Of a DNA stretch of 59,143 bases, positions 9,006 through 30,000 are shown piece by piece. Source of the DNA: Candidatus Omnitrophota bacterium (GTDB lineage Bacteria > Omnitrophota > Gorgyraeia > Aquiviventales > Aquiviventaceae); the NCBI GenBank assembly GCA_016193175.1, contig JACPSR010000044.1, positions 1 to 59,143 on the forward strand, written 5' to 3'. Made by a program: the position numbers and the translations under genes. Under the pieces are notes generated by a model that worked only from the letters and a program-made list of their open reading frames with translations, did not search any database and was not told where the DNA came from. Position 1 is the first letter of the stretch. Each line of letters begins with the position of its first letter.

Positions 9006-12000
9006 TCACCGATCGTCTCCAGTGTCGCACCAGCAATAGCAGGAGCTAAGCGATCTCCCACCGTCTCGGTATATTCGCTCTCGACGACTCCTTGTAGGAG
9101 TACTTGATCCTCCTCGGCAACACCCTGAGTCCCAGCGTGTCGTCAGAAACTCCCGGGCCATGCGCCGATCAACGAGCGCCATCAACTCCACAGTTCGCTC
9201 AAGAGTCGGTGGCGCGACGACCGGCGGTTGTGCAGCGGCTGGCGGGGCTTCAGGCGCCTGGGCTGGCGCTGGGGGGGGCGTTGGCGAAGCGCCATCCGCT
9301 AAGGAGTTGAGGAGTCGCCAGGCCGCCTGGCGCAGATCCGCCACCTCGGCAGCCAGGCCAGCGTCCTCGGCTTGCGCGTCCAGCCCGATCAAGGCCGCCC
9401 AGACGCTGTCGCGTTGGCTGGCCTCTGGCCCTCCTTCCAAGCGCGCAATCGCTGCGGCATACTCCCGGCGGAGCTTCACCAGCACTCGGGTATGCTCGAA
9501 CAACCGCCAGGCCTCGGCGTGGCGCTGCGCCACGTCCTCATCGTCCTTCAGACCGGAGGAGTCGGCTAGCTTGTCCAGCGTGATCAAGGCCTTCCAGACA
9601 TCCTCAAGCGCCTGGGCGTCCGTCACGTGCTTCAACCTCTCGATCGCCTCGCCATACCCTTCAAGCACCTGGGCGCGGAGAGCGTTGGCCTCATCGAGTG
9701 GTGCTGGCTCTGGCGCTGGTCCGGCGGCAGACGCTGGTGCCGGCGCGGGCGGTCCAGGTGGCGCGGTTTCGCCTGCGACAACCGGCGGTGCTGACGCTGC
9801 TACCTCTGCTGCCCTCGGCGCCTCAGCCCCAGCCTGGACGGCTCCGGCGCCTGGCGCAGGTGCAGGAATCGGTTCAGCAGGAGCGGCTGCCGGTTTCGGC
9901 GTGGCTACGGGCTGGGAAGCTGCGCGATCGCGGTGTCGGACCAAGTAGGTGTAGACGAGCAAGACCGCCAAGGCAAACACCCCAGCCGCCACCGCTGGAT
10001 TCGCCTGGATGGTGTGTGACACGGCATCCAAGGCTTGAGACACGGAATCCCATATCGTTGCATGATGTGGTTCTAGTGGCTGGGCGGGCCCGAAGCCGCC
10101 CGCGAACTCGGGGGAAAGCGACGACGTCATCGCGGCGTCGGCAGGCACGCTCACCGTCTCAGCGCCGGAGAGGCGGATGAGCTGGCCCGGATGGATCAGC
10201 TCAGGATTCGTGATCTCCGGGTTGAGTTTGAGGATCTCTTGGACCTTCGCTTGAATCTCGGCGTTGGCGGGTGTGGCCACGCCTTCCTGCTTGAGCAGAT
10301 CCCGCGCGATGCCCCAGAGGGTATTGGCGCTGCCCCCGCGCCAGGTCTCAACCACCGCGACCAACCCCTTGTACGCGCTGGTCAGGGCCGGCGTCCCGCC
10401 CAACAGTGTCGTGGCCACCTGCGCCGCCTGTCTCAGTTGCTCCGACGTGAGGTTCGTGGCGGCGGTGATGACCTGCGCGTCCGCCAGCGCCACAACCCCA
10501 AGGAGCGCCGCCCCGATGAGCAGCGTCGGAACCACAAACGGCAGGACCGACTTCATCCGCTTAACCCATCCCTTGTCTGTTGCAGGTCCAGGCGGCGGCT
10601 CCTTTGGCTTCTTTCTTGCAGCAACCTGGACTGCTTGAATCCACTGGACAAGTTCCGGAGCGCCAATGGTTTCAGCGGCTCTTACCAGTTCATTGAGCGT
10701 ATCTTCAAGTGCCTGCTGCTCCTTCCGAAGCTCGGGTTCGCTCGTGACATAGCGAATTTGCTTGAGGCCCCATTCCTGAAATTGCCTTCGAATCTCCTCT
10801 TGAATTCTCTGTGAACCAGTCTGGTGATACACTGTCCCCAAGGCGATGAAATCAGGAGCTCTGCGACCGTTGAATGCCGCCGCGACCTTGCTGATCAGGG
10901 CTCCTTCCGTGCGCAACCATTCCTCCCGCCATTCCTTCAGAAAGCCCGAGGCTCGCGCGGCTTGCTCACCTGTGACAGGCAACGGCCTGAAAAGATCCGC
11001 ACGCGCCTCGTCCGCATCCCCACCGGCTCGTTCAACCACGCCCATTAGCTCTTGCCACGTGGCATAGAGCGACCATGCCTCGCCGGCCACACCTGCGTAC
11101 GGAATTCTCCGAATATCCTGAATTCTGCTGGCCACTTCCGTGACGTCGGTGGCGTTCCCAAGGTATTGGAAGACACTTCCCTGGAAGAGGCCTCGCAGCA
11201 CGCCGTGATTTCGCAGGATAGTGCGTGCAAGCGATGCTTGATTCGCCTGCGCGAATTGTCTTGGAAACAGCTTTCCAATCAGCTCGCTGAGTTGCTTGCC
11301 ATCCTTGATCAAGGCCTTCCCAACGCTGACCTGCTCCTTCATGAGTTGGAGCGAATCAATGAAGGTGCGATCGGTCATCTCACCAAGCAACGTGTCGGCC
11401 TTCGAGGAAAATGCGAGGAGTGTCACGACCCTACCTGTTTCTGAGTAGACATAGTAGAGCCGGTGGTCCCCAATTCTAGAGCGGGAGAGCCCTTTCGCTC
11501 TCCCATGCATCCCTTCCTTGCCTATCAGGCTAGGTAGCCTCGAAATCATGGTTCGAAGCTCCTCACGTGCGTCTGGGTATTGATCGACGTTCTCGGAGAA
11601 CCCAGGAGTCACTTGCATGTAGAAACCGCTTGGCCAGTTTGGCGGTTCGATGTGCCAGGGTCGAACATGCCCCTTGCCCCAATTCCCCAACGTCGCGGCG
11701 AGGCCGCCGACGCCGAGCGGGCCAAGAGCCGACCAGGCCGCGGCAGTCCCGAGCGAGCCGAAGTGCAGGGACGAGAGGTTCAGCAGGGACGAGAACCAAC
11801 TGGTCCAGTTGCTGCTCGCCTGGTCCAGGTGCCCGGTGAAGCCGATCGCGTCCCCCTGCAGGCCGACGAGCGCCGCGACGGTCATCAGGCCGGCCATCAT
11901 GCCGATCTTCCACGGAATGCGCGAAGGCGTCGGCGGGGCGGACGGAGTCTCTGCGATGCGCTCCGTCGTCCCCGGGTACGCGCGATCCGCGAGGTCCCGG

Positions 12001-15000
12001 GCTCGGGCGGCAATCGCGCTGGCATCCAACTGAGCTCGTTCCGCCAAGCGCTGCGCGTACAGGTTCTGGAACTGCTGGCGCGTGGCCTGGCTGGCTCGCC
12101 CGGCCAGCGCCCGCATCCTCTCTTTGAACCCCTCGGGTTTGAGGACATCCTCTTGCGCCCTTTGCGCGTCCTTGTCCTTGACCCCGAGCCCAACGGAGTG
12201 CTCGATCCGCCGCAGCTCCGGCCTGGCCGCCTGAACGGCCTCTTGGAAGAAGGTGGCGCCCAAAGCCAGCGCGAGTCCTGAGCCGAACCAGCCCGCCCCC
12301 ATCAGGCTCATGGGCATGACATCAGAACCCGGGAGGCCGGCCCACTGGGCCAGCGCAGAGAGGCCGCCGAGGAGCGCGGAGGTCGTCAGGGTGCTGACCA
12401 GGAGCGTGGGGGCAGAGGCGTCTTTATTGTGCACGGCGAGGCCGTTGGCGAAGTAGGTGGGCGTGGGGGAGGCGGTGAGGTTGTAGACCCGGGTGGGCGC
12501 GCGGATGCGCTCGATACTTATGACAGCCACTGGCACAAGCCCTTCGATCTCAAATGCCAAGGGGCTAGGGGCCAGCAGTGCGGCAGGGTTGACAAGATTC
12601 AGAATTGGTGATACAGTTGTCGCCGTGGAGCCGAGACTGACATCATTCTGGACCAAAGGTAGGCGGAAGGCCCTGTCGAGCACGTTGCTCACGATCTTCC
12701 AAATCCTCCTTGCTGAATGAGGGGAGAGGACCCATGTTATTCGCTGTGGTGACGGTGCTCCTGCTTGCGATGGTTGCGGGGGCGTGGCTCTTGATCGAGG
12801 ACCGCCGGCTCCGGAAACACGCCCACTGACTCCTCTGTCAGTAAAGGCTGCATCCACCATCAGTTCCTGCCCCGCCTGCAGGTCCTTCACCTTCACGAAC
12901 GCACCCTCCGGGGTGAAGATCGGATGCTCCCCGGTCACCTCCACCGTCTGGCCGCTGGCTAAGTGCACCTCGTAGTACGCCCCGACCTCCCTCGTGAGCG
13001 TGCGGACGACCTGGCTTGCCGTCAACTCGCCCGTCTCGGGATCAAACGCCCGCACGCGCTCCCCCACCTGCACCTGCTCAATCGGCTTGCTCGTCCCATC
13101 CGCCAAGGTAATCCGCGTCCCCGCCAGGAAGCACTCGTGTTTGGTGAGGCGTTCGAGTTGCCAGCGAAGTATTCCCAGACGTTCGCTGAGCACCGCCCTG
13201 AAACCGGGTTCGGCTGCGACCAGTTGCTCTTCATCGCGCCTGATCTGGCTCCGTAGCCACACTGGACTATTGAACTGGCGAAGGGTTGGCAGGACGACCT
13301 TCAAGTGACCTGGAACGGTTGCAGCCTTTTGCGCTTGGACTGGCGCAGGCGGCGCGGCGGCGGGGCTACCCAAAAGCGTAAGAAGCGTTTGATAGATGTC
13401 TGGCTTGCGGTCCTTTAGTCGTGGCAGGAGCCGCAGGATCTCTTGAATCTTCGCGGCAGCGGCCGCTCCTTTGTAGAAGTGTTTCCGCTGGCCCTGGATG
13501 CGATCTTGACCCGCCTCAAGCACGCGCCCATCCGACAAGACAGATCGGATAGTCAAACTTTCTGGATCGCCTGAATCTGGGGTGCTTCGGTGGCGTAGTG
13601 TTACCGTGACCACTATGGAAGGCTTTGCTTTCCCACCTGGCCCACCCATCTGCGTCAGCCCGACGGCCAGGGCCAGCGCGCTTGCCAGTCCGCCGAGGCC
13701 CACGCCCCCGACCGCTGCCAGCGTACCCCAGCTCGTGGAACTTCCCGGTGACGCAGCGACCTGGGCGACCTCGGCCACCGCGGCCAGCGCGGGATTGAGA
13801 CCGCTCGTGGCGAATACGAGCCCGCCGAGCGCCAACCCTGCGATCGCGAACTTGCCCCACGGTAGCGAAGCGGCGGAGCGGAGCGCCCGTTCGACGATCT
13901 CTCGCACTCGAGGACGTTCCAGTCTCCGTAGTTCTTGACGCAATCCCTCGATGTCTGATAACCGGCCCACGAGTTCCCTATTGGCAGGATGCTGGTCGGC
14001 CTGGAGCGCCTCAAGCTGCTGTATTCGCTCACGGAGTCGTCGCACCGCAGCCGCCTCCTCGACACTCAGCGTCTTCTCGTCCCGCTCGGATACTGCGGCC
14101 AGCCGCTGGGCCATCTCCTCGGCCAGCCTGAGCCGCCGCAGGGTCGCCTCCAGGACGCCCTCGAACAGCGACGCGGGGGCCGCCGGCTCAACCGCAGGCG
14201 ACACAGGGCGCACGTGGCGCTCCCTCCACCACTGGCGCAGGTCCTGCGCGATCTGGTCGTGGGCAATCTTGCCGTCCGGTGTGAGCCAACTCACTGGTCT
14301 ACCCGTCCACCAGGCGAACAACTTGGCCGCGCTCGCGACCAGCGCCTGTGGCCCCATCGTGAACATGAATTGCGCGCCTCCAGATCCTTCTTGACCACGC
14401 TCCTCCTCTGGCCTCAGGCGCTCGAACACGACAGGGAGTCTTACGCCTCGAACTACTGGTTGACCTTCAGCAAGTTTGAACAACCTAGAATTGATGACGA
14501 CCGCAGACACGACTTCCGATTTGTGCCCGCGCCAAAGCTCTGGGAGCTCCTGGATGTTAACCCGTTCACCGGGGGCAAGTCCGGCTAACGCAGCTTGGGC
14601 CTCCTCGATCTCCTCAACTATCGCCCGCCAGTCAAGATTGAGTCGTCTGATCTGTCCCCGCAATGTAGAGTCGGAAGCCAAGATTCCATAGACCTGGACA
14701 TGATCTCCAAGCGGCCGGAAGAGGTGAGACTGCCGAATCTGTTCTAACTGGTTCACCACAGCATCTCGATCCTCAGCAAGCCCTAGCCGTTCACCTGCCG
14801 CAACACGTTCCATTAGGCGATCAAGAGTTCCAGATCGCTCTTCCCCAGTCACGGAGGTTGTTGTTGGAAAGATGCGACCAGCTGTACGTTGCCCGTGTTC
14901 AAATAGCGCATACTCATCAATGTCCTCAATATCCTCTCCACGACTCGTCCGCACCACAAGCATCCTGGCAACATACGTTGCTTCAAACTCTATTCGAAGG

Positions 15001-27000: not shown

Positions 27001-30000
27001 AACGCGCGAGCAGGAACCTGATCGGCAAGACGATCCGTCCCCGGTCGTTTAAGCGCAACATCCCGACTCGCCTTTTCATCTGTCACCTCCTGTTGAAACC
27101 AGCCTCGGGACTTTCCAAAAAGGGCGATTCCGCCGAACAGCCAACTGGAGAGCAACCCAAGCGCGCCGTCCGGGGCAACGCCGGCCACCGTCGGCATCCC
27201 GGCGCCAATGGGTACCGCAGGCGTCAGCGACGCCAACCAAGTGCCTACCGCTTGGAGCGCCGGCGTCACAAACGGCGCCACCGCCTGGAACAGAAGGTAC
27301 GCCAGTCCCATGAGCACCATCGCTTGCGACGCCGGTGAGACCTCCTTAAAGAAATCCCTCATCATGCCTTTGAAGATGTTCTCCTGCTTAGGCGTGAGCG
27401 GTTCCGGCGTCCGTTCAATGGCTGGCCCGGATGTGCCGGGCACTGATGGCTCGACGGGCGGAGCGGGCGACGCTTGCTCAGGCTTGGCCTCAGGCGCTTC
27501 TGGTGGGGCGGCTGACGGCGCTGGCTTGGCTTCAGCAGCCGGCGCGTGACGCGCAGCGCTTGCGGCCGCCGTTTCGGCTACGTCTGGCGCAGCGGGTGCA
27601 GGCGTAGCGGCTGCTGGCACAGTGGCTGGAATTGGCGCGGTGGCGTTGGACTGCCGGACTTGGGTGGTAGCGGCCGGAGTCGCAGGTCTGGCGGCTGCCC
27701 CTGGCTGTGCGGCTGGCGCAGGCGCTCCCAAGGCCTGTCTCAGCCGGGTAAGCGCGAGATTGCGCCGAAGCTCGTTGCTAAATTCAGGATCAGTTCCTGG
27801 ATCGGCGCGCTGGGCCGCTTCGAAGTGCGCGAGGGCGTCTTGATATCGGGCCTCGTTCCAAGCGCGAATTCCCTCGTTGGCATGGCCGAGCGCCACATTG
27901 TATTGAGCCGCTGCAAGACGGTGTTGAACGGTCTGGGCGAGTTCGGCATCCTCCGCATCCTCCGATGAGACGCGCCCAAGGGCCTTCTGATAGCTGTCAA
28001 TCGCATCCCCATATCGCTGTTCCTCAAACGCGGCGTTTCCGATCATGGCATAGGCGCCCGCGTCCGTAATCTTCGACGCCGGATCAAACAGGAGGAGATG
28101 GCGTATGATTTCCTTGGCCCACTCATCGAGACTGACTGCTCTGGCGAGTTGCACAATAGGCTTCGGCGCAATCTTCAGAACCTGCCGCTTCTCTTTCTCC
28201 TCGGCGCCTGGCACTTCAACCTCAACATCTTCCACCGTGGACTGCGCCATGACAGCGGATCGTCTCTTCGCCGCTTCCGGCAAGGAGAGCTCCCTGATCA
28301 GATCGTGGTCCACCGCGGCGAGGATGCGTGCCGTCTCGAGGTCGATCTGCGAATCCACCATAAGAAAGAAGAGCCACGGGTCGCGGTCCATCTGAGCGGC
28401 CGCCTCCTGCACCATCCCAACCGTCGGCTGCTTGCCCTCCAGCCCTCGCAGCTCCCTGAGGCGATCTCTGGCTGCCTGGGACGTGCGATGGAGGTTCGCC
28501 AAGATCAGGAGCGGGGGAACCGGCGGCTTGCCTTCCTGGGTCTTCGCCTGGCTGCTGAGCGCGCTCATGAGTCGCGCCCAGGACATCAAGGCCTGATTGC
28601 GTGCCAGTGAGATGATGTCACCAGCAGACGGCATGGTGGGAGCGGCCAGGTGCCGCACATCGACCCCTTCGGTCAACTTCGGGTTCACGTCATTCAGAGC
28701 TGTCACCAACGTCTCAACCCCCTCCAGCTCAGCTTCCGTCGTGCCCAACCCGAGGAAGAACTGGGCGACGACCAGCGGCGAAGCCTTGTTCGTCTCGGCG
28801 AGCTTCTGAACCGCTTCGAAGGTCACCGCCTCGTTGGGCTTGAGGATCCCCTCGATCGCTTCTCCCTCACCCTCGTACAATTTCTTGACATCCAGCGCGG
28901 TCTCATAGGCGCCGGCAGATGCAGGCGCTTTCGGCGTATCGTATTTGGTGATGAGGTTCGCGACATCGAGCGGCGTGCGCGCTGCCATCGCTTCCTGGAT
29001 CGGCACCGCCGACGCAATGCCGAGGGTCTTTAACCCCTGCCACACGGCTCTGATTCGCTTGCGCTTCTTCTCATCGGCGTCCGGGAAGAAGAGAGGAATG
29101 AACATGGCGCTGGTGATGGCCGCTGAGCGTGGAGTCTGAGGCGCGGGTTCAGGGGCTCGCGGGACGCCACCGCGACCTCCTCCACCAGGCGGGCTCGGAG
29201 GAACGCCGATACCGCCCCCGGTCCCTCCACCGCCTCCAGGGCCGCCACCGGAGATACCTCCACCACCGCCCCCGGTCCCTCCACCGCCAACTCCACCACC
29301 ACCAGGAGGCACCGGAGGAACAACACCACCACTCCCGCCACCAGGAGGCGCAGGTTCAGGACCTCGCGGGACGCCACCGGCACCTCCACCAGGCGGGCTC
29401 GGAGGAACGCCGATACCGCCCCCGGTCCCTCCACCGCCTCCAGGACCGCCACCAGGAGGCGCAGGAGGAATCGTGCCGCCACCAACAGGAGGAGATTGGG
29501 GAATCATGCCTGAGCCGCCACCTGGTGGGATACCGCCGCCCCCAACTGGCGGCGTCGGAGGAACAGCGCTGCCACTGCTCGGCATCGATGGAACGCTGGG
29601 CCCTTCCACGCTCGTTGGCGGTGTGGATGAGACGCTACCGCCGCTAGGAGGCATGGGAGGAACAGCGCCACCTCCGCTACCAGCCCCGCTGCTCCCTGAA
29701 CCTACACTTGAGGATTGATCTCGGCGCATCGCCTCCGCCAGGCGCTCTAACGTCCCAAACGTGACGGCGGTGTTCTCTAAGGCGCGCTGCGCGCGGGTTA
29801 TTCGTTTTCCATCGAGAGCTCCTACTTTCACTTGCTCTCCACCTTGCTGCTTCTGTTGCACTCGCTCAACGATCTTTCGTGCCTTTTGGGCCTTCTTCTG
29901 GGCGGACGCTTGCCCTTTAATGATGTCGCCAAGCTCCCGATACAGCGTCGGGTAGGCCGAGGCGTCAATCCGATCCCGAATGAACTTGGCCAGGATCAGC

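Follow-up and report, generated by a model that had tools for sequence, protein, structure and literature searches.

The 59,143-bp window analysed here, a complete contig (JACPSR010000044.1) from a Candidatus Omnitrophota bacterium, carries a giant gene on its minus strand, and the best explanation for two patches within that gene is that they are diverged, paralogous cassettes of about 0.25-0.3 kb, nested antisense in it. Each of these candidates, termed cassettes A and B, has a putative promoter on the plus strand followed by two small open reading frames (ORF1 and ORF2), the second of which would encode a small membrane peptide. On the sequence features described below, we lean towards real, expressed small-gene cassettes, and specifically towards a mini-operon, present as antisense paralogues, that specifies small membrane peptides and whose RNA would also be antisense to the giant messenger RNA (mRNA). 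A toxin-like function would make up perhaps a quarter to a third of this reading. By sequence comparison, the cassettes belong to no described family.

In cassette A, the putative promoter (12589-12617, plus strand) comprises the -35 hexamer TTGACA at 12589-12594, a 17-nt spacer and the extended -10 element TGaTACAGT, with TG at 12609-12610 and the -10 hexamer TACAGT at 12612-12617, which together give 10 of 12 hexamer matches in addition to the TG. A GTG codon seven bases past the -10 element opens A-ORF1 (12625-12720, plus strand), a putatively leaderless frame of 31 codons (MEPRLTSFWTKGRRKALSSTLLTIFQILLAE) that contains the motif KGRRK. Its TGA stop codon (12718-12720) abuts the Shine-Dalgarno-like sequence GGGGAGAGGA (12721-12730), three bases upstream of the ATG of A-ORF2; GGAGG-type sites are also used by other genes in the window. 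A-ORF2 (12734-12829, plus strand) encodes a 31-residue peptide (MLFAVVTVLLLAMVAGAWLLIEDRRLRKHAH) with one hydrophobic stretch of about 20 residues, predicted to be a single transmembrane helix, and a basic tail. A weak hairpin (ACTGAC-TCCTCT-GTCAGT, 12825-12842) spans the ORF2 stop codon and ends at the boundary of the inserted segment; it has no U tract and is not called as a terminator. Promoter, GTG, KGRRK frame, GGGGAGAGGA and ORF2 had all been described in the original prediction, and each lies exactly where it was placed.

That prediction also pointed to a diverged second copy at about 3600-3893. Such a copy is present, with the same architecture, and was recovered by alignment and pattern search after a blastn comparison of the region with the window had failed. 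One correction applies: cassette B, which spans about 3599-3893, lies outside the Hint (intein-like) domain that hosts cassette A, antisense to a non-Hint linker in a stretch of the giant frame that is absent from the program-made list of ORFs. Its putative promoter (3651-3679, plus strand) has TTGACA, a 17-nt spacer and TGcTAAGGT, a -10 element with three of six matches and the TG extension, and is not picked up by a stricter promoter scan. An ATG seven bases past the -10 element opens B-ORF1 (3687-3893, plus strand; 68 codons, beginning MLSKGRRKYIAT...), with KGRRK two codons on, and this frame reads over B-ORF2 in a different frame. B-ORF2 (3763-3864, plus strand) encodes a predicted single-transmembrane peptide of 33 residues (MPFLMPIFLMLGLSVVFAGLLFWDQYQKKHAPR) that ends in KKHA, and is preceded by no Shine-Dalgarno site.

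The two copies thus share a common design: an extended -10 promoter, a start codon seven bases past the -10 element, a mini-ORF with KGRRK and a transmembrane peptide. Both peptides are 31-33 residues long and combine a single transmembrane helix with a basic tail whose last residues are (R/K)KHA. The original prediction had named conservation of the promoter and the small ORF between copies as a test of itself, and the same -35 hexamer, TG, spacing, KGRRK and transmembrane peptide are indeed kept. The pattern TTGACA-N14-TGnTAnnnT has exactly two matches in the 118 kb of both strands, where 0.01 would be expected, and these are the two cassettes. KGRRK occurs twice in the six-frame translation of the window, once per cassette, and these two loci alone pass a filter that selects small ORFs combining a transmembrane stretch with a basic tail.

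Sequence likeness between the copies is strongest over the promoter and the 25-30 bases that would be transcribed first. The KGRRK codons read AAA GGT AGG CGG AAG in A and AAG GGT CGC AGG AAG in B, and all four base differences between them are synonymous when read in the plus frame and non-synonymous when read in that of the host (FRLPL versus FLRPL). Aligned ORF2 peptides are identical at 11 of 31 positions, and none of 2000 shuffles of one peptide equals the alignment score, a significance that is overstated because shuffling breaks the order of the segments.

Coding signal was assessed with a codon-usage likelihood test trained on the giant ORF minus the cassettes, together with four genes of the Tad pilus operon in the window. 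This test replaced the comparison of GC content at third and second codon positions (GC3 and GC2), because GC3 below GC2 is common in the Pro/Ala/Gly-rich linkers of the giant protein and is therefore unspecific. The log-likelihood ratio per codon of the plus frame versus the host frame is +0.44 for A-ORF2 and +0.43 for B-ORF2, values reached by none of 1217 control windows of equal length and the same phase in the giant ORF (mean -0.48 +/- 0.28). For ORF1 the corresponding ratios are +0.12 in A, reached by 0.25% of controls, and +0.08 in B, reached by 1.2%. In an unbiased scan of all open 32-codon antisense windows, the ORF2 windows rank first in their own frames (A, 0.476 versus 0.309 for the next window; B, 0.497 versus 0.128).

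These results bear on the possibility that nothing is nested here, and that the patches are fast-evolving, disordered loops or linkers of the minus-strand protein opposite which a promoter and ORFs appear by coincidence. The giant frame is open through both patches, the giant protein is rich in low-complexity linkers with host GC3 below GC2, the host-frame translations of A and B can be aligned collinearly at 30% identity, and a tally of substitutions fits the host frame almost as well as the plus frame. However, the promoter pattern, the start spacing, KGRRK and the transmembrane-ORF filter coincide at both sites, far beyond chance, the codon scan places both sites first without having been directed to them, and other PT-HINT domains have no such loop. 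Furthermore, a host-frame profile of both inserts, searched against 1.84 billion representative proteins, retrieves no other protein, yielding only two self proteins and repeat junk. We consider coincidence quite improbable.

Both cassettes fit exactly the definition of a sigma-70 extended -10 promoter (TTGACA, 17 +/- 1 nt, TGn, TAnnnT), and these sites are putative promoters on that basis. When the spacer is allowed to vary by one nucleotide, the sole further TTGACA / TGnTAnnnT site in the contig lies at 56899-56870 on the minus strand, with an 18-nt spacer, directly upstream of a c-di-GMP-I (cyclic dimeric guanosine monophosphate) riboswitch (56633-56772, minus strand; 53.6 bits). A terminator hairpin with a T-run (56647-56620, minus strand) belongs to this riboswitch, and a gene for a 59-residue Flp pilin (MVLKIWSQFGKAKG/QVTVEYF…; 56582-56403, minus strand) follows directly downstream, so that a Tad pilin appears from the sequence to be under c-di-GMP control. 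The presence of the same promoter type at a bona fide riboswitch and flp regulatory region indicates that it is a working promoter type of this organism.

If the promoters are real, their product might still be a non-coding cis-antisense RNA that acts on the giant gene through transcriptional interference or through RNase III, which would cut the duplex formed with the giant mRNA, with the ORFs untranslated or irrelevant. The promoter is the strongest single feature of the cassettes, conservation is clearest there and in the first 25-30 transcribed bases, B-ORF2 has no ribosome-binding site, and any transcript from either promoter would necessarily be fully complementary to the giant mRNA. Against this explanation, the KGRRK differences, all of them synonymous, point to constraint at the protein level, both ORF2 windows are extreme outliers in codon usage, a strong and correctly spaced ribosome-binding site stands ahead of A-ORF2, and neither transcript is significantly structured. 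We regard a purely non-coding product as somewhat unlikely, and consider next where the favoured peptide-encoding cassettes reside.

Cassette A is located within a Hint domain (PT-HINT or intein-like) of the giant ORF (12426-13133, minus strand), which matches the Pfam families Hint (3.4e-11), Intein_splicing (9.1e-11) and PT-HINT (9.1e-10), all above their cut-offs. Its motifs are intact: block A contains CFLAG at residue 11097 (Cys11097), block B contains TGEHP at 11163 and block G contains VHN at 11330-11332. The residue at position +1 is Lys11333, rather than the Cys, Ser or Thr required of a splicing intein, which assigns the domain to the PT-HINT or bacterial-intein-like autoprocessing type. 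On this basis the domain probably autocleaves, which would free a very large C-terminal fragment, rather than splicing.

The original prediction had placed the patch exactly between Hint blocks B and F, and it is indeed flanked by TGEHP (block B) and by VYNL...VHN (blocks F and G), with the Intein_splicing profile aligned in full across it (1-155 of 155). Three distant homologues of the Hint region were detected in all, each of them a PT-HINT protein, and all three lack the insert, in agreement with the comparison that the original prediction had proposed. Neither this region nor the linker around copy B has a close homologue in the protein collection, where very long proteins may be under-represented, as a 3870-residue self protein was missing from the search with the Hint region. 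The equivalent stretch is about 19 residues long in these homologues and about 120 residues long here, which places insert A at approximately T11194-L11295, that is, about 306 nt or 102 host codons (12537-12842). An insertion relative to other PT-HINT domains, in the loop where inteins carry endonucleases, is therefore supported by sequence comparison.

Composition changes at the same place. Host GC3 is 0.87-0.93 in both halves of the Hint domain and 0.37-0.50 in insert A, where GC at host position 2 (equivalent to position 3 of ORF2) rises to 0.77-0.83. A lower GC content of the patch overall had also been claimed; it is lower, but mildly so (0.58 versus about 0.64). The giant minus-strand frame stays open through insert A, where its translation is of low complexity, and the description of that translation as junk-like agrees with this and with the collapse of host GC3. 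Pfam searches at E values up to 1 return nothing for the 102-residue host-frame translation, and no homing-endonuclease domain (LAGLIDADG, HNH or GIY-YIG) was found by Pfam between blocks B and F. An AlphaFold prediction of the Hint domain with its insert is a poor model (mean predicted local distance difference test score 42.5), with 51-71 in the N-terminal half of the Hint domain and 23-39 in the insert; this low confidence is compatible with a disordered passenger loop, as weak evidence from a model.

Insert B (3599-3886), which may be an insertion or a replacement, covers about 96 host codons of a linker between transmembrane-like segments in the downstream part of the giant frame. Its neighbours are a Gly-rich transmembrane-like segment on one side and an MLSVAGLMTV... 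segment on the other. Paralogous host segments upstream lie after the Hint domain and are joined by an ordinary charged linker (residues ~11390-11500). Descent of copy B from this paralogous linker was considered and dropped, as the internal parts have no similarity, and the region around copy B finds only itself in the protein collection. The host positions of A and B are thus non-homologous, which favours duplication and insertion over inheritance of one ancestral segment. Relative to the host frame, A and B have the same phase. Just one of the three minus frames is open in insert A, and survival within an essential frame would therefore impose the phase that the two share. Shuffling leaves a given frame open in 3% (A) and 5% (B) of cases.

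The original prediction described a small inserted element, and its two parts fare differently: insertion relative to PT-HINT domains holds, but the marks of a mobile element are lacking. A scan for repeats at the insert boundaries found no terminal inverted repeats, target duplications or flanking direct repeats for either copy, and the combination of terminal inverted repeats and target-site duplication that defines miniature inverted-repeat transposable elements and insertion sequences is thus not observed. This bears on whether the cassettes could be functionless fossils, decayed remnants of foreign or duplicated DNA (a promoter-proximal gene fragment, an insertion sequence or a phage) stranded in permissive loops. 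The copies are highly diverged and B looks degraded, no further copies were found, GC content is slightly foreign, and a host frame that is open in ~3-5% of shuffles makes survival of a random insertion plausible. Set against these points are the missing boundary repeats, the lack of similarity to phage, plasmid or any family library, and the retention of the hexamers, TG, start spacing, KGRRK, transmembrane segment with basic tail, and KHA end despite the divergence, which indicates constraint. A fossil origin therefore seems to us rather improbable, and functional cassettes remain our preferred explanation.

Relatives of the cassettes were sought widely. The strict pattern shared by A and B has no match in 185,579 species genomes, and its sole match in JGI metagenomes (L004) is an unrelated promoter and hairpin. 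A looser pattern (promoter, start codon and KGRRK) gave nine genome matches and four viral matches (IMG/VR), all rejected as chance; these are low in GC and have no transmembrane ORF, and KGRRK is mostly out of frame. Two loci from metagenome-assembled genomes (MAGs) of Clostridia/Eubacteriales (L005, 823-882, plus strand; L010, 1970-2029, minus strand) have an extended -10 promoter, the same spacing and an eight-codon frame, MKTKGRRK. These loci are low in GC and have no transmembrane ORF after MKTKGRRK, and the mini-ORFs are probably unrelated to the cassettes. In the Ilyobacter polytropus MAG SZUA-427, a promoter-like sequence followed by VPRKRAQQKQRTLRTK lies within about 200 bp of one locus end in five of five loci (L006, L007, L011, L012 and L013), and looks like the end of a repeated insertion sequence.

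An nhmmer model built from A and B found no new copy over the retrieved loci, which include a relative with 77% CpaF identity; this relative has the same Tad operon, and the 10-kb flank that was covered stops short of the giant gene. Plasmid and phage blastn searches gave no match, and exact look-ups of the small ORFs as called genes were empty. No significant Pfam, NCBIfam, PADLOC or PHROGs family was obtained for ORF1, ORF2 or the host-frame insert, and Rfam has no family for the cassettes at gathering thresholds or at E values up to 10. Kinship with Flp pilins and TadE (Pfam TadE, E value 0.0018, below the cut-off) was rejected, because the peptides lack the G/xxxxEY motif and the genuine flp gene is at another locus.

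Several results weigh against the expression of nested genes at these sites. No relative of the cassettes was found in any collection or family library searched, and blastn finds no second copy in the window while BLASTP finds almost nothing; homology between A and B therefore rests on shared architecture. Copy B is the weaker of the two, with its weak -10 element, its ORF2 without a ribosome-binding site and its extended ORF1, and by these signs it may be decaying. Codon differences in the ORF2 region barely separate the frames (in the plus frame, 6 are synonymous and 19 non-synonymous; in the host frame, 4 and 20), and Pro/Ala/Gly-rich linkers can give rise to hydrophobic ORFs on the opposite strand. 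Folding of the predicted transcripts is unremarkable, with minimum-free-energy z values of -1.2 (A) and +0.3 (B), and the promoter and terminator scan found no terminator after either of them.

By analogy, the cassettes come closest to a type I toxin locus that includes a leader ORF, here sited where inteins carry endonucleases. As in the type I loci known as hok/mok/sok, each cassette would specify a small single-transmembrane peptide with a charged tail, translation of the peptide is apparently coupled to an upstream or overlapping leader ORF (mok-hok; ORF1-ORF2), the RNA of the opposite strand is fully complementary, and there is more than one diverged copy per genome (here two copies in 59 kb). 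Both ORF2 peptides (31 and 33 residues) fall under the 60-residue limit for a hydrophobic single-helix type I peptide. Unlike hok/mok/sok, the cassettes have no dedicated small antitoxin RNA with its own promoter; promoter scans found no minus-strand promoter for such an RNA in or near either cassette, and the sole antisense partner is the ~47-kb giant mRNA. Folding predicts no significant mRNA structure or 5'-3' fold-back for the cassettes (a 17-nt complementarity of the 5' and 3' ends, at 76%, is present in A only). They also differ in a start that is putatively leaderless, and Pfam, NCBIfam and Rfam searches relate them neither to Hok/Gef, Ldr, Fst or TisB nor to the RNAs of these families. 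We know of no type I systems described in Omnitrophota. The proposal of a type I toxin-like peptide is thus borne out as to a small, predicted transmembrane peptide, but not as to toxin-family homology or an antitoxin promoter. A small nested gene cassette that doubles as a source of antisense RNA is a reasonable reading of these sequences; the type I toxin and mobile element identities are conjecture.

Other known systems resemble the cassettes in part. Homing-endonuclease insertions likewise place foreign DNA in the B-F loop with Hint motifs intact on both sides, but insert A has no endonuclease or other domain, is about 100 codons long, codes on the opposite strand and has its own promoter, and its host domain, unlike endonuclease-bearing inteins, is PT-HINT or bacterial-intein-like, with Lys at +1. 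Rickettsia palindromic elements are short, non-autonomous, in-frame inserts in protein genes that add a passenger peptide. The cassettes are similarly read through in frame as a passenger segment; however, they are neither palindromic nor structured, exist in two copies and carry an antisense promoter and ORFs. Nested small genes in bacteria include comS inside srfA and antisense overlapping genes in E. coli and Pseudomonas. As with comS, the small ORFs lie wholly within a very large gene, but in contrast to overlaps of this type the cassettes brought their own DNA by insertion rather than overprinting, are antisense and form two paralogues.

If the favoured reading is correct, RNA polymerase would begin transcription on the ORF1 start codon or beside it and so make a leaderless mRNA, whose start site we deduce from the promoter position. 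In copy A, ribosomes that finish ORF1 would terminate on the ORF2 ribosome-binding site, and in copy B the ORF1 ribosomes would read over ORF2. Translation of ORF2 would thereby be coupled to that of ORF1, as mok couples hok, and the ORF2 peptide would enter the inner membrane in an N-out, C-in orientation. The host frame would read through the cassettes only because it is stop-free there, with the 96-102 added residues forming a tolerated and probably disordered passenger loop. The transcript, perfectly complementary to the giant mRNA, would also act as a cis-antisense RNA against the distal part, disturbing its transcription, stability or translation; because of this complementarity, the more the peptide is expressed, the less the distal, post-Hint part of the giant gene should be, and vice versa.

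A more elaborate form of this mechanism, which we think unlikely, is a nested type-I-like module of a new kind in which the giant mRNA is itself the antisense partner. It is just as doubtful that, in such a module, transcription through the 3' part of the giant predation or adhesion gene silences the peptide by duplex formation, or that the strong antisense promoter, when the giant gene is off, allows the peptide to be made while shutting off the distal effector part beyond the Hint domain. An equally tentative idea is that the endonuclease loop of the Hint domain acts as a safe harbour for inserted genes, making the cassette a non-endonuclease analogue of intein invasion.

The host gene itself is interrupted in this contig. 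Gene order is on the minus strand throughout, with the Tad pilus operon first and the giant ORF downstream. The operon includes the CpaF ATPase (57311-59080, minus strand), followed by a DUF192 gene, the c-di-GMP-I riboswitch, small genes, a gene for a 738-residue Tad-like protein and a pair of TadB/C genes; wherever a CpaF homologue has a source name, it is from Omnitrophica or Omnitrophota. The giant ORF (9006-46421, minus strand) has 12,471 codons and contains the Hint domain with cassette A. The host frame continues for at least 2867 stop-free codons (1-8602, minus strand) and extends past the contig end; this continuation was missed by the ORF list because it runs off the window, and contains cassette B and, at its residues 304-416, an SLT lytic transglycosylase domain. 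More than 1100 residues without a Pfam match separate the Hint domain from this SLT-bearing part.

The two frames are joined in JACPTW010000026.1 (L018), an independent NCBI assembly of the same population that is 99.9% identical to the window. There, an extra 48-49 nt (L018 5158-5205) at window position 9135/9136 fuses both giant frames, 3320 codons cross the junction stop-free, and a few mismatches lie close to it. In the window, which lacks these nucleotides, the giant ORF is shifted into a junk tail (…RWDSGCCRGGSS…*) with a stop at 9006; the difference is either a strain deletion or an assembly error. As the frames are joined stop-free in L018, the true host gene is probably, on this sequence evidence, one ORF of more than 15,000 codons that contains both cassettes.

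L018 contains a run of N at 9962-10000 (window 4371-4380), and because of it the NCBI annotation splits the giant frame into a partial protein of 3870 residues, MBI3082964.1, and one of 1794 residues. MBI3082964.1, which overlaps the window, is annotated as an SLT-domain protein of Candidatus Omnitrophota, and the passenger stretches translated from cassettes A and B are present in both public protein records. Across the two cassettes, three assemblies do not differ, and hence offer no population variation; this identity in independent assemblies also shows that the cassettes are not an assembly artefact.

Codon composition is uneven along the giant ORF (9006-46421, minus strand), with GC3 of about 0.9 in and after the Hint domain, 0.53-0.70 just upstream and 0.67 overall. 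GC content per kb falls to 0.54-0.56 at 16-18 kb and 30-33 kb, and a Gly/Pro low-complexity block occupies ~29046-29825. This heterogeneous composition suggests that the giant ORF is of mosaic, modular origin.

Giant genes beside Tad-like systems are known in Omnitrophota (West-Roberts et al. 2023, bioRxiv 10.1101/2023.11.21.568195), and the host gene is of this kind, in an Omnitrophota genome and immediately after a Tad operon. The text of that preprint mentions neither intein or Hint domains nor antisense, promoters or nested ORFs, and these are likewise unmentioned in a 2026 complete-genome preprint (10.64898/2026.06.07.730766).

Gene callers read through both cassettes, and the public proteins carry their passenger translation, which is a warning for annotation. 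If the cassettes are expressed, an unrelated gene on the opposite strand can be accommodated in the endonuclease loop of a Hint domain while a frame of ~15,000 codons stays intact. Giant genes of Omnitrophota are thought to act in predation or cell-wall attack; with internal antisense promoters, such genes could have their distal effector part gated. Expression would also give the uncultivated phylum Omnitrophota its first candidates for small membrane peptides or type-I-like modules.

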